IMG/VR virus record: IMGVR_UViG_2874968258_000002
Origin: a virus
Taxonomy: Duplodnaviria > Heunggongvirae > Uroviricota > Caudoviricetes
Direction: 5' to 3' (one strand)
Length of the DNA: 29,210 bases
Below, piece by piece: positions 3,001-5,946 of the stretch (the first letter of the stretch is position 1; every line of letters begins with the position of its first letter). The position numbers were made by a program.

Positions 3001-5946
3001 CTGGCAGGCAACAATCTTTCCGCGCACGACATCCCGGGCATACTGATTTGCAGCATTTACGTTGGGGTAAGATTTCCGGCTCATGATTCGATAATTTTCA
3101 GAAACGGGTTAGTGGCTTTCTTCTGCCCCGCCAGGCCAATCAGACGCTGGCGGCTGCTGGGGTCGAGTCCGAGCATTGCCCCCGTGCTGCTCATCTCGGA
3201 CTCCTGTTCTTTTTTGGCGGTCAGCTCCGGATTTTTGACCCTGCCGCCCATTGCACCGGTGATGGTGTTGCCCTGTATGGCAATATTTTTCACGGCACGT
3301 CGCCAGAACTCATAGGCCACGCACCACCGCTCAAGTACCGCCAGGTCAGTCACGCACAGCAGGCCCTGACCGCAGAGTTCTTTGGTTGTCAGTTGCCACA
3401 TGATCGTGGCGAGAGGGAGATCTTCTTCAGCGAACCACTCTGGTGGCTCAACACCTTTGATGGGCGTAAAAACAGGTTCATCTTTGTTCAGGGCTCGCTT
3501 GCCGGGGTTTCCGGCCAGCGCCTTGCGCGCCGTTGGCTTGGGGCGACGCCCGGAACGCCCCGCCGTTCCAGCCATATGCGGCACTCCTGGTTAAATTTCA
3601 TTTTTCGCGGGTATAAAAAAACGATGGGGCGGGCAGTCCGGAAGACGTCAGGTCACAGGGATTTGCCCCGCCCCTCCCTACAAGTGAGAATAATTATCAC
3701 CGGATTCGTTCGCGCGCTGTTTTCGCTTTATGGCAGGGCCAGCACAGACTCTGCAGGTTGCTGTCTGCGTCTGTTCCGCCATGCGCTTTCGGGATGATGT
3801 GGTCGACGGTTTTCGCCTCGCTCACCACACCGACACGCAGACACAACTGACACAGACCTTTATCGCGCTTCAGAATACGGGCACGAATCACCGTCCATTT
3901 TGAGCCATAGCCACGCTGGTGGCGGCTCAGTCCGCGCTGGTGCTGCACCCAGCCTTCACCGCGATGTTTATCGCAGTAACCCGAACTGTCTGTGGTTGTA
4001 CCTGCACATCCACGCTTACGGCAGGCACGTGGGATTAGTGATGGCATAAATACCTCATACCCTGCGAAATGTTTACCACGATAAAAAGGCTACTTAATGC
4101 ACTGAGTGCGGATATACTCCTGCGCCCCTTCCAGTTGCTTCTGCATCGTCATCAACCGTTCTCTGAGGGTGAAATAATCCCGTTCAGCGGTGTCTGCCAG
4201 TCGGGGGCTGGTTGCATTATCCATGCTGGTGGGTCCGGTGGCTTCACGCACGGCTGCGGAGCAACTGGCATTGACCCGCAGGCGCTTACGACCAGCGGCA
4301 ACATCAGCGCGCAGAGTTTCATTTTCAGTTTTCGCATCGGCTAACTCCTTCGTGTATTTTGCATCGATCGCAGCAACATCACGCTGACGCTGCTGCATGT
4401 CAGCGATGGTGGCGGTCGCCTGCTTCAGCTCACTGACTTTTTTATCACGCTGTTCTTTGTAGGCGATGGCGTTATCACGGTAATGATTGACCGCCCACGA
4501 CAGGCAGACGATGATGCAGATAACCAGAGCGGAGATAATCGCGGTTACTCTGCTCATTGTTGCCCCCACAAACAGACTTCACGCTCAATCTCACGACGAG
4601 TCATCAGGCCTTTCCATTGCTTACCGCCAGCGTATGTCCAGCGACGTAGCTGGTCACATGCGCCTTTGATATCGCCCTGGTTTATTTTGCGAAGAAGCGT
4701 CGATGTTCTGAAATTGCCAGCACCCACGTTGTAGACGAACGAGTAAAGAGCGCCGCGCGTTGTTTCCGGTATATCGACTTTGATGTACGGGTTAATTTGT
4801 CTGGCGACCGTGGCAAGGTCTTTATTCAGGAGGGCTTTGCATTCTGCTTCGGTATACGTTTTACCTAGCATGATGTCTTTTCCGGTGTGTCCGTGACATA
4901 CAGTCCATACGCCAACGATATCTTTGTATGGTATGTAGCTGACACCTTCCAGGCCATCGTCACCACTCGGACCAGTGATGAGCACAGACGCTATGGCAAC
5001 AGCCCCACCACCAATAGCAGCAGCAACAGCCTTGCGTAATGATGGCGACATTATTCACCTCTCGCAGCCTTACGCTTGTCTTCTCTTATTTTGAAATACA
5101 GATTTGTCAGATAAGTCAGAAGCCCCAGAAGCAGACTTCCCAGCACACCAATCGCAGCCCACTGTGATGGACTGACCTGATCCAACCACTGCAAAAACCA
5201 GTAGCCGGCACTGCCGGCGGAGGTGCCGTAGGCAATGCCTGTTGATATTTTTTCCATCTGATACATATCCCGCCCCCCGACAGACCTGTGCTATCGGAAA
5301 GAAAAAAGGCCATCAGCAAAACTCTGATGGCCTGAATCACCTTTACCAATATTGTATGAAAAAACACGCACGACTAATTGACAATAATTTTCATTTCCAT
5401 TAAAAAAGATCGCGTAGCATTCTTAATTCATGAGGAACTTTACCCGCCAGCAATCTGAGTAGCGAAAGCTGTTCATCCCCAATGTTTTTGCTGGCGGGTC
5501 CTTTTTTCTACGGTCCTCCTCCCCGGAGGGGGGCATTTCATTATTTTTCTAATCGTTACTGGTGAGAAGGCGGAAGAAAAAGCCAGTTCTTCGCCCCTAA
5601 ATAACAGCATGATTCCAGTCCATGCAAAATCTGATTTCCAGCTCACACATACCGAGCGCTGTACAAAAAACCGCCAGCCAAGGCAGTTAAGAGTGTGTTC
5701 CCGGGGTTTGCTTAGAATATTTTGTAAGTTGTCCGAAGAGATATTTACAACACCAGAATGATGAATCATCAGTCCCCTGCCAGAGGTTCACTACGTAACC
5801 TGACCGACAATGCACCATTCTGGTGCTGAAAAAAGAGCACTGGAACTGCAACAAAACAACATCACAGAACAGGAGATGGTAAGGAGTCAGACATTCCCAC
5901 ACAATATTGTGTCAGTGCAAATAACAACCTTCGTCTCAAATCTCGC

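Follow-up and report, generated by a model that had tools for sequence, protein, structure and literature searches.

A candidate small RNA gene opposite the late operon, just upstream of the class II holin in an Escherichia coli lambdoid prophage

Is the compact promoter-like and terminator-like unit that lies between the tRNA genes and the holin gene of an Escherichia coli lambdoid prophage a small RNA (sRNA) gene, and if so, does it act on the lysis genes that it faces or elsewhere? The question is raised by IMG/VR virus record IMGVR_UViG_2874968258_000002 (Caudoviricetes), which was analysed over its whole length of 29 210 nucleotides (the window). Its late operon lies on the minus strand, in the order Q, P1-immI-like module, tRNAs, gap and holin, followed by lysozyme and Rz; the unit (the element) lies in the gap on the plus strand, in the orientation against the late operon that a preliminary description had already given. 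That description, made from the sequence alone, had proposed an antisense sRNA. On comparative evidence an sRNA gene is now the best reading of the element, and 'antisense' holds for its orientation only, because the characterised neighbours of its kind act mainly in trans on host mRNAs. We assign a probability of roughly 0.55 to the reading, drawn from sequence comparison, that the element is a stand-alone sRNA gene of ~97 nt, carried as a prophage 'moron' just upstream of the holin and against the late operon, that it is transcribed in the lysogen and that its product acts through Hfq on trans targets. This reading is supported by stem arms that are invariant against ~16% divergence of the flanks, by an invariant -35 hexamer, by a promoter that passes a sigma-70 scan in a second clade, by validated Hfq-dependent sRNAs in the same slot and by an expressed syntenic unit in prophage PP4 of strain E2348/69; its limit is a -10 hexamer that is defective by consensus in the window. 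The features on which the argument rests are collected in Table 1.

Table 1. Features of the candidate unit, its surroundings and the PP4 counterpart (window positions unless an accession is given)
Feature	Position	Strand	Remarks
-35 hexamer TTGACA	5379-5384	+	Inside 12-mer ATTGACAATAAT at 5378-5389; read directly
-10-like hexamer TAAAAA	5402-5407	+	17-nt spacer from -35; consensus final T missing
Predicted small RNA, ~97 nt	5413-5509	+	5' end inferred from -10, 3' end from U-tract
Terminator hairpin overall	5442-5499	+	
Outer terminator stem, 12 bp	5442-5453 (ACCCGCCAGCAA) / 5488-5499 (TTGCTGGCGGGT)	+	12/12 complementary, 34 nt between the arms
Inner 8-bp hairpin	5456-5475	+	GAAA loop
Unpaired 12-nt stretch	5476-5487	+	
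Tail CCTTTTTTCT	5500-5509	+	U-tract two bases past stem: CC, T6 (5502-5507), C, T
Second terminator-like hairpin	5513-5534	+	From terminator scan; followed by ATTTCATTAT
Gap, 680 bp	5267-5946		Candidate sRNA unit inside, on + strand
Module accompanying holin	5267-5647		Similarity ends at ~5647
Class II (P21 S-type) holin, first lysis gene	5051-5266	-	PF04971, E = 1.5e-35; MYQM dual-start motif
Strong late-strand intrinsic terminator	5297-5333	-	Directly 5' of holin ribosome-binding site; 10-bp stem, then TTTTTTCTTTC
Late-strand terminator closing tRNA cassette and trailer	5660-5688	-	AACTGCCTTGGCTGGCGGTT, then TTTTGTACAG; converges on the candidate from the other side
tRNA-Gly bounding gap	5947-6021	-	
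Four tRNA genes	5947-6257	-	Between Q/immI-like module and gap
Q antiterminator	7491-7898	-	PF06530
PP4 unit, annotated coding sequence E2348C_1013	NC_011601 ~1060705-1060613	minus	Opposite class II holin

Promoter-like site, hairpin and coding potential

The promoter-like TTGACA-17-TAAAAA that had been noticed on the plus strand is present, and the 12-mer ATTGACAATAAT that contains its -35 hexamer lies 112 nt from the holin ATG. By itself TTGACA is nothing unusual: over the two strands of 29 kb, chance alone would give ~14 occurrences. The hexamer was unchanged in five of the five sequence variants of the element. In clade 2 (L002), the commonest intact variant, in which the window's run of six A is shortened to five, the sigma-70 scan accepts TTGACA-18-AAAAAT at 10/12. 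Two other promoter candidates in the gap were rejected. A possible sigmaE promoter (GGAACTT-N13-TCTGA, 5433-5457) has a motif that is not conserved in clade 2 and a spacing 3 nt too short when measured against that of rpoH P3, and a promoter-like site on the late strand (5568-5540) is likewise not conserved in clade 2.

The 12-bp stem and the U-tract were found as first reported, every pair of the stem being complementary. Only three perfect inverted repeats of at least 12 nt within 70 nt occur in the whole window, this one among them. On its own the hairpin has a folding energy of -28.3 kcal/mol (z = -4.9, with 0/200 shuffles as good), and the predicted 97-nt RNA one of -31.6 kcal/mol (z = -4.1), with its 5' ~29 nt mostly unpaired in the centroid structure. 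A T-rich tail is present on the plus strand only (TCTTTTTTCT in the other variants); on the minus strand the hairpin is followed by TAAAGTTCC, and a function on that strand was rejected (weaker fold, z = -3.0, and no U-tract). As in canonical intrinsic terminators and the 3' ends of Hfq-class sRNAs, a GC-rich stem is followed by at least six U and preceded by an unpaired AU-rich region, and the Rho-independent terminator with a tail of about six U that characterizes an Hfq-dependent sRNA gene is thus present. Unlike in canonical terminators, the loop measures 34 nt and holds an internal hairpin (canonical loops being 3-8 nt), and two C separate the stem from the U-tract; the terminator scan missed the hairpin because it allows loops of 3-8 nt only. 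The second hairpin, 3' of the tail, is possibly a back-up terminator and is not conserved in clade 2. Its G-run (window 5526-5531; also L009, L018 and L035) is G4, G5 or G6 in copies that are otherwise nearly identical.

According to these features, host sigma-70 RNA polymerase would start a few bases past the -10 hexamer, near 5413, and transcription would stop at the 12-bp hairpin and its U-tract, at ~5507-5509, yielding an RNA of ~97 nt whose 5' ~29 nt are AU-rich and for the most part unpaired and whose 3' end forms a hairpin followed by a U tail. As this is the layout of Hfq-dependent base-pairing sRNAs, the RNA would most likely act in trans in the lysogen, its targets being mRNAs of the host or the phage, as for PasA/PasC, PapR, AsxR/AgvB and the PP4 RNA, and a secondary cis effect on leaky or induced expression of the lysis genes is possible. 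The analysis establishes the sequence features, their conservation, the synteny and the fact that the PP4 counterpart is expressed; for the window copy we infer transcription, binding to Hfq, targets and any such cis effect. No plus-strand gene lies upstream of the unit in the window, bor/iss being absent from it, and the lack of a gene for the terminator to serve was counted in favour of a stand-alone sRNA gene.

That no plausible protein is encoded was borne out. The six open reading frames (ORFs) of the gap (37-98 aa) have no Pfam or PHROGs match and are not conserved between the clades. The Prokaryotic Genome Annotation Pipeline (PGAP) calls a 63-aa hypothetical protein on the minus strand across the element in L002-type strains; it has no family match and is not conserved, and its frame is broken in the window. 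A ten-codon ORF on the plus strand (ATG at 5429) is intact in several variants and has no Shine-Dalgarno sequence. These two frames are what could point to a toxin-antitoxin pair of type I or to a gene for a small protein across the element, an explanation that we consider highly improbable: the minus-strand ORFs of the gap are hydrophilic, none of the ORFs is hydrophobic as the small toxin of such a pair would be, and the element is non-coding as an sRNA gene should be. In an Rfam covariance search of the gap nothing reached the gathering score, and only chance-level matches were obtained at E values of up to 10 (5200-6000); the STnc100 / PasD partner (RF02076) was absent from the gap of the window even at E values of up to 10.

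Conservation and spread of the element

The element was found in ~1420 of 5426 complete E. coli genomes (about 26%). Window-type copies are present in nine genomes (the 680-bp gap is 100% identical to that of strain CFSAN029787 and eight other complete genomes), and clade 2, as intact prophage, accounts for 126 records. Remnant copies are of two kinds, in both of which holin and lysozyme are deleted and the unit is retained. Plasmid remnants amount to ~640 copies, and in the one that was examined (L006) the element stands beside iss, Rz fragments and decayed lysis genes; two chromosomal remnants, those of ATCC 25922 and an ST131 strain, were examined, and in both of them papI is ~2.4 kb away from the element. 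Strain IHE3034 and avian pathogenic E. coli (APEC) O18/O78 are further carriers. In IMG/VR contig L014 two identical copies of the element (183-208 and 1463-1488) lie 1280 bp apart, which suggests local duplication of the holin-upstream region. The nmpC/ipeX region of the K-12 prophage DLP12 was rejected as a relative, as the nmpC-essD intergenic region is not homologous.

Between clade 2 and the window the flanks are 82-85% identical and the hairpin 93% identical, while the stem arms are retained at 24/24 positions, for which the chance at that background is ~0.013. One variant has an A-U to G-U change in the stem. Loop conservation among the viral contigs is a biased measure, as the pattern used to fetch them fixed part of the loop. 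Covariation analysis was impossible because only about five near-identical variants are available, 60 of the 62 class II holin loci of other species being without the element.

The same distribution might be read as that of a non-functional relic, in which a lost moron or a decayed sRNA gene has left its promoter and terminator behind, the hairpin is kept by chance and recent shared ancestry and no stable RNA is made. The narrow phylogenetic spread over about five close variants, the location of most copies in degraded prophage fragments between insertion sequences, the stem mismatch of the plasmid version and the weakening of the window -10 by one extra A would all fit such a relic. It is nevertheless improbable, given the retention of all 24 stem positions against ~16% flank divergence, the completeness of the unit in every clade, remnants included, and the syntenic PP4 unit, which is among the most abundant Hfq-bound RNAs of enteropathogenic E. 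coli (EPEC).

An expressed counterpart in PP4 and the known small RNAs of the slot

In prophage PP4 of EPEC strain E2348/69 an identical ATTGACAATAAT was found on the strand opposite a class II holin, 100 nt from its ATG compared with 112 nt in the window, with a homologous late-strand terminator between promoter and holin. A terminator follows ~90 nt downstream of ATTGACAATAAT, with an 11-bp stem (GCCAGCGCAGA/TCTGCGCTGGC) and U6 (U-tract at 1060614-1060619), and the predicted PP4 RNA (~93 nt) resembles the element in its long GCCAGC-containing stem, its large loop and its U6. Published EPEC data show that this locus is strongly expressed: its RNA-seq BaseMean is 2064 versus ~5 for the neighbouring genes, and the RNA is down 7.5-fold in a delta-hfq strain [log2(delta-hfq/wt) = -2.91, adjusted P = 1.4e-23]. 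Fragments from RIL-seq (ligation and sequencing of interacting RNAs; 1060613-1060672, same strand) are always found in the second place in chimeras, the one typical of sRNAs; the partners are the nlpD-E2348C_3010 intergenic region (nlpD-rpoS; 537 chimeras), the 5' untranslated region (UTR) of entC (263), the E2348C_1084-E2348C_1080 intergenic region (72) and the 5' UTR of dnaK (28), and the RNA is present in ~808 000 other chimeric fragments of ~18.2 million. In the published EPEC paper it is not called an sRNA. The 3' end of the RNA falls at an intrinsic terminator 85 nt into the 'gene' E2348C_1013, and this coding sequence (WP_012578864.1; L118 4609-4754, NC_011601.1 ~1060613-1060741, minus strand) is, very probably, a spurious ORF that covers an Hfq-dependent sRNA of high abundance.

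When the full units of the window and PP4 were aligned, none of 500 shuffles reached the observed score. As the match of the RNA bodies alone is marginal (see below), the promoter-proximal region is taken to be homologous and the RNA bodies to have diverged or been replaced, a pattern that has also been reported for PasA variants and anti-sRNAs. The PP4 RNA converges on PasD1, unlike the window element, which has no PasD or STnc100 partner. Whether the element and the PP4 unit belong to an unrecognised, fast-evolving family of holin-proximal antisense sRNAs, with a common promoter and position and swappable RNA bodies, is a tentative suggestion that we would sooner doubt than accept. A survey of 53 holin regions is at most suggestive: TTGACA occurs 60-260 nt from the holin ATG on the antisense strand in seven of the 53 regions and on the sense strand in one, and the seven represent only about four independent families.

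Prophage-borne sRNAs in antisense orientation at a holin-proximal position are already established, and no concept is changed by a further one; slot and orientation together are a recognised home of sRNA genes. PasA and PasC of EPEC E2348/69 are Northern-validated, Hfq-dependent sRNAs (Pearl Mizrahi, 2021; Zhu et al., 2026) that map to the minus strand of the gap directly 5' of class II holins, the holin operon being on the plus strand. They share with the element the holin-adjacent gap, the direction against the late operon, a TTGACA-type promoter and a GCCAGC-containing terminator with a U-tract, but show no significant similarity to it (99/500 and 382/500 shuffles reach the observed local score), and in BLAST comparisons of the element with the PasA/PasC loci only the start of the holin matched. 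PasA adjoins a sialate esterase gene and lies ~180 nt from its holin; in its mature form it measures 84 nt and reportedly arises by processing of a longer transcript. A second promoter and terminator unit in the PasA gap (L052 3267-3330; NC_011601.1 ~743267-743330, minus strand) abuts the esterase stop codon, reads TTGACAGGCATC ... AGCCAGCG/CGCTGGCT followed by T7 and is listed in RIL-seq as pasA.E2348C_0688.IGR with ~12 800 chimeras. Homology of the element to this second unit was rejected by shuffle-controlled local alignment and BLAST.

PapR of uropathogenic E. coli UTI89, an Hfq-dependent sRNA that represses papI and has a mapped start and a Rho-independent terminator (Khandige, 2015), was located through its published primer sequences: it stands between tRNA-Ile/Arg/Arg on the one side and a class II holin on the other, and runs antisense to the late operon. 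It therefore shares the slot of the element and its orientation relative to the late operon; it differs in length (~180 nt) and in sequence, which is unrelated (63/500 shuffles reach the score). UTI89 does not carry the element, its DLP12 site holds no prophage, and the primer-derived PapR sequences are absent from the window. In L002-type (clade 2) prophages a PapR-like 3' end follows ~250 nt downstream of the element in tandem arrangement. STnc100 (RF02076) is present in UTI89 and L002, and PapR is convergent with it. Convergent sRNA pairs 5' of the holin were also observed as such (L002 3399-3525 and L055 3378-3767), PapR (UTI89) or a PapR-like unit facing late-strand STnc100; in AR_0086 the PapR-like unit consists of TTGCAA-18-TATTAT and a terminator at 3466-3494, and the 3' ends of the pair abut. 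In enterohaemorrhagic E. coli the moron site 3' of PR' in lambdoid prophages holds convergent pairs of Hfq-bound sRNAs; AsxR is antisense to stx2AB, and the anti-sRNAs AsxR/AgvB and other EcOnc sRNAs bind Hfq (Tree, 2014). AsxR and AgvB (51-60 nt, with a shared ~42-nt 3' region) are set apart from the element (~97 nt predicted) by description only.

At 150-240 nt upstream of the holin start the late transcript is the exact complement of the predicted RNA, which raises the alternative of a cis-acting antisense regulator of lysis. Here the RNA, or convergent transcription itself, would lower leaky holin expression or tune lysis timing, either by pairing with the late transcript upstream of S, followed by RNase III cleavage, or by transcriptional interference, and would have no important trans targets. 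Besides the complementarity, such a role would suit a module (5267-5647) that travels with the holin, being 87.3% identical in related E. coli prophages (H10-H20) with different upstream cargo (tRNAs in the window, a DNA methyltransferase elsewhere; ~1500 records fall in the module-wide 80-90% identity band), and it has a parallel in PasA, the RIL-seq partners of which in EPEC include the adjacent late-strand gene. It is, however, difficult to reconcile with the more than 1300 copies that persist in remnants devoid of holin and lysozyme; moreover, the late-strand terminator at 5333-5297 already insulates the holin and the characterised RNAs of the slot act in trans. A purely cis-acting regulator is for these reasons quite unlikely.

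Several observations weigh against a trans-acting sRNA gene. The sigma-70 scan does not accept the window promoter, because TAAAAA lacks the highly conserved final T, and there is no extended -10; this main objection is softened by PP4, the best -10 candidate of which (TATAGA, 16-nt spacer) is also without the final T, yet its RNA is abundant. The branched 34-nt loop and the 2-nt gap before the U-tract are atypical for efficient termination. Most copies sit in decayed prophage remnants, and the plasmid remnant has one mismatch, a G-to-A change, in the stem. The element was not found outside Escherichia/Shigella, and two of the 62 class II holin loci of species representatives carry it. No compensatory changes occur among the variants, which are all close relatives, so that the support for the structure comes from conservation only. 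The body-only alignment to PP4 was equalled by 20/500 shuffles for the window and 7/500 for clade 2, nhmmer gave no link between the element and the PP4 RNA, and a full-text literature search for characteristic strings of the element returned irrelevant primer matches only.

Surroundings of the gap and biological meaning

The location of the gap between the tRNAs and the holin is as first described; its size, given as 670 bp, was measured as 680 bp. The gap is rich in terminators, eight being found on the two strands by the terminator scan compared with 1.3 expected. The strong terminator that directly precedes the holin ribosome-binding site has positional counterparts in E2348/69 PP2, PP4 and UTI89, and of 53 distinct holin loci, 32 have a late-strand terminator no more than 700 nt from the holin; this survey used a crude home-made detector that missed the window element, and only the frequency of late-strand terminators was taken from it. 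In many class II holins the strong late-strand terminator lies 35-45 nt 5' of the start codon (window 5297-5333; L052, L055, L118), which implies that the lysis genes are reached only by Q-modified polymerase.

In such surroundings the plus-strand hairpin might be an insulating terminator and nothing else, which stops stray or read-in plus-strand transcription from the lysis cassette before it enters the tRNA/Q region, the TTGACA being fortuitous and no defined sRNA being made; in phages that carry bor/iss, its transcript could be the source of the read-in. The poor -10 of the window, the density of terminators on both strands and the second plus-strand hairpin that follows are compatible with this, as is the position of iss in the relatives and plasmid remnants that carry it, upstream on the same strand and separated from the element by no more than weak terminator-like sites. 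However, the unit is intact in the window, where bor/iss or any other upstream plus-strand gene is missing, TTGACA is invariant, the 12-mer ATTGACAATAAT occupies the same position in the expressed PP4 unit and the clade 2 promoter passes the scan. We judge insulation unlikely as the whole explanation; the roles of terminator and sRNA are not mutually exclusive, and the insulating and cis-regulatory explanations both overlap mechanistically with that of a trans-acting sRNA gene.

Further features were noted around the gap. Directly 3' of Q, a P1-immI-like RNA and anti-repressor module (window 7048-7463 and 6447-7208, both minus strand) comprises an isrK match (RF01394, 77.5 bits), which is placed where the short PR' transcript is expected, c4 a1/b1 targets, a C4 antisense RNA (RF01695, 71 bits), an sRNA-Xcc1 match (77.4 bits) and a protein with an ORF6N domain, and is similar to the isrK locus of Gifsy-1. 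The four tRNA genes seem to form an autonomous cassette, with a terminator on the late strand at 6371-6350, a site resembling a promoter at 6296-6267 and a trailer of 287 nt (5660-5946, minus strand) that ends at the terminator 5688-5660. The trailer, in which a long hairpin with imperfect pairing occurs (arms 5744-5774/5802-5832), shares 71% identity with the one that follows tRNA-Thr/tRNA-Gly in phage SerU-LTIIb and could be the source of a 3'-trailer-derived RNA. Farther away, the non-coding stretch 22374-22601 holds dense direct and inverted GGTGAACAGTT repeats that are iteron- or operator-like, and at 27602-29210 a tRNA-Met gene (27602-27677, minus strand) is followed by two tandem units of ~776 bp, each with a 167-aa ORF (27737-28240 and 28513-29016, minus strand) and a CTGTCATACGCGTAAAACAG palindrome.

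The published EPEC data thus hold a very abundant Hfq-bound RNA under a spurious coding-sequence label, and PP4 offers an immediate experimental handle on this class of unit. Should the doubtful family of swappable RNA bodies be real, lysogens would express its members, which would be heavily bound to Hfq and would reprogramme core regulons. Extraintestinal pathogenic E. coli would in that case have in the element a riboregulator that is widespread and unannotated, has outlasted prophage decay next to iss on plasmids and close to papI in ST131/ST73-type islands, and might double as a cis brake on holin expression. If the element is transcribed, it would be another horizontally spread sRNA gene in the 'moron' slot between Q and the lysis genes, which has already yielded the virulence and metabolism regulators AsxR/AgvB, PasA-D and PapR; annotated nowhere so far, it would stand out among them for its wide distribution in virulence-associated contexts.

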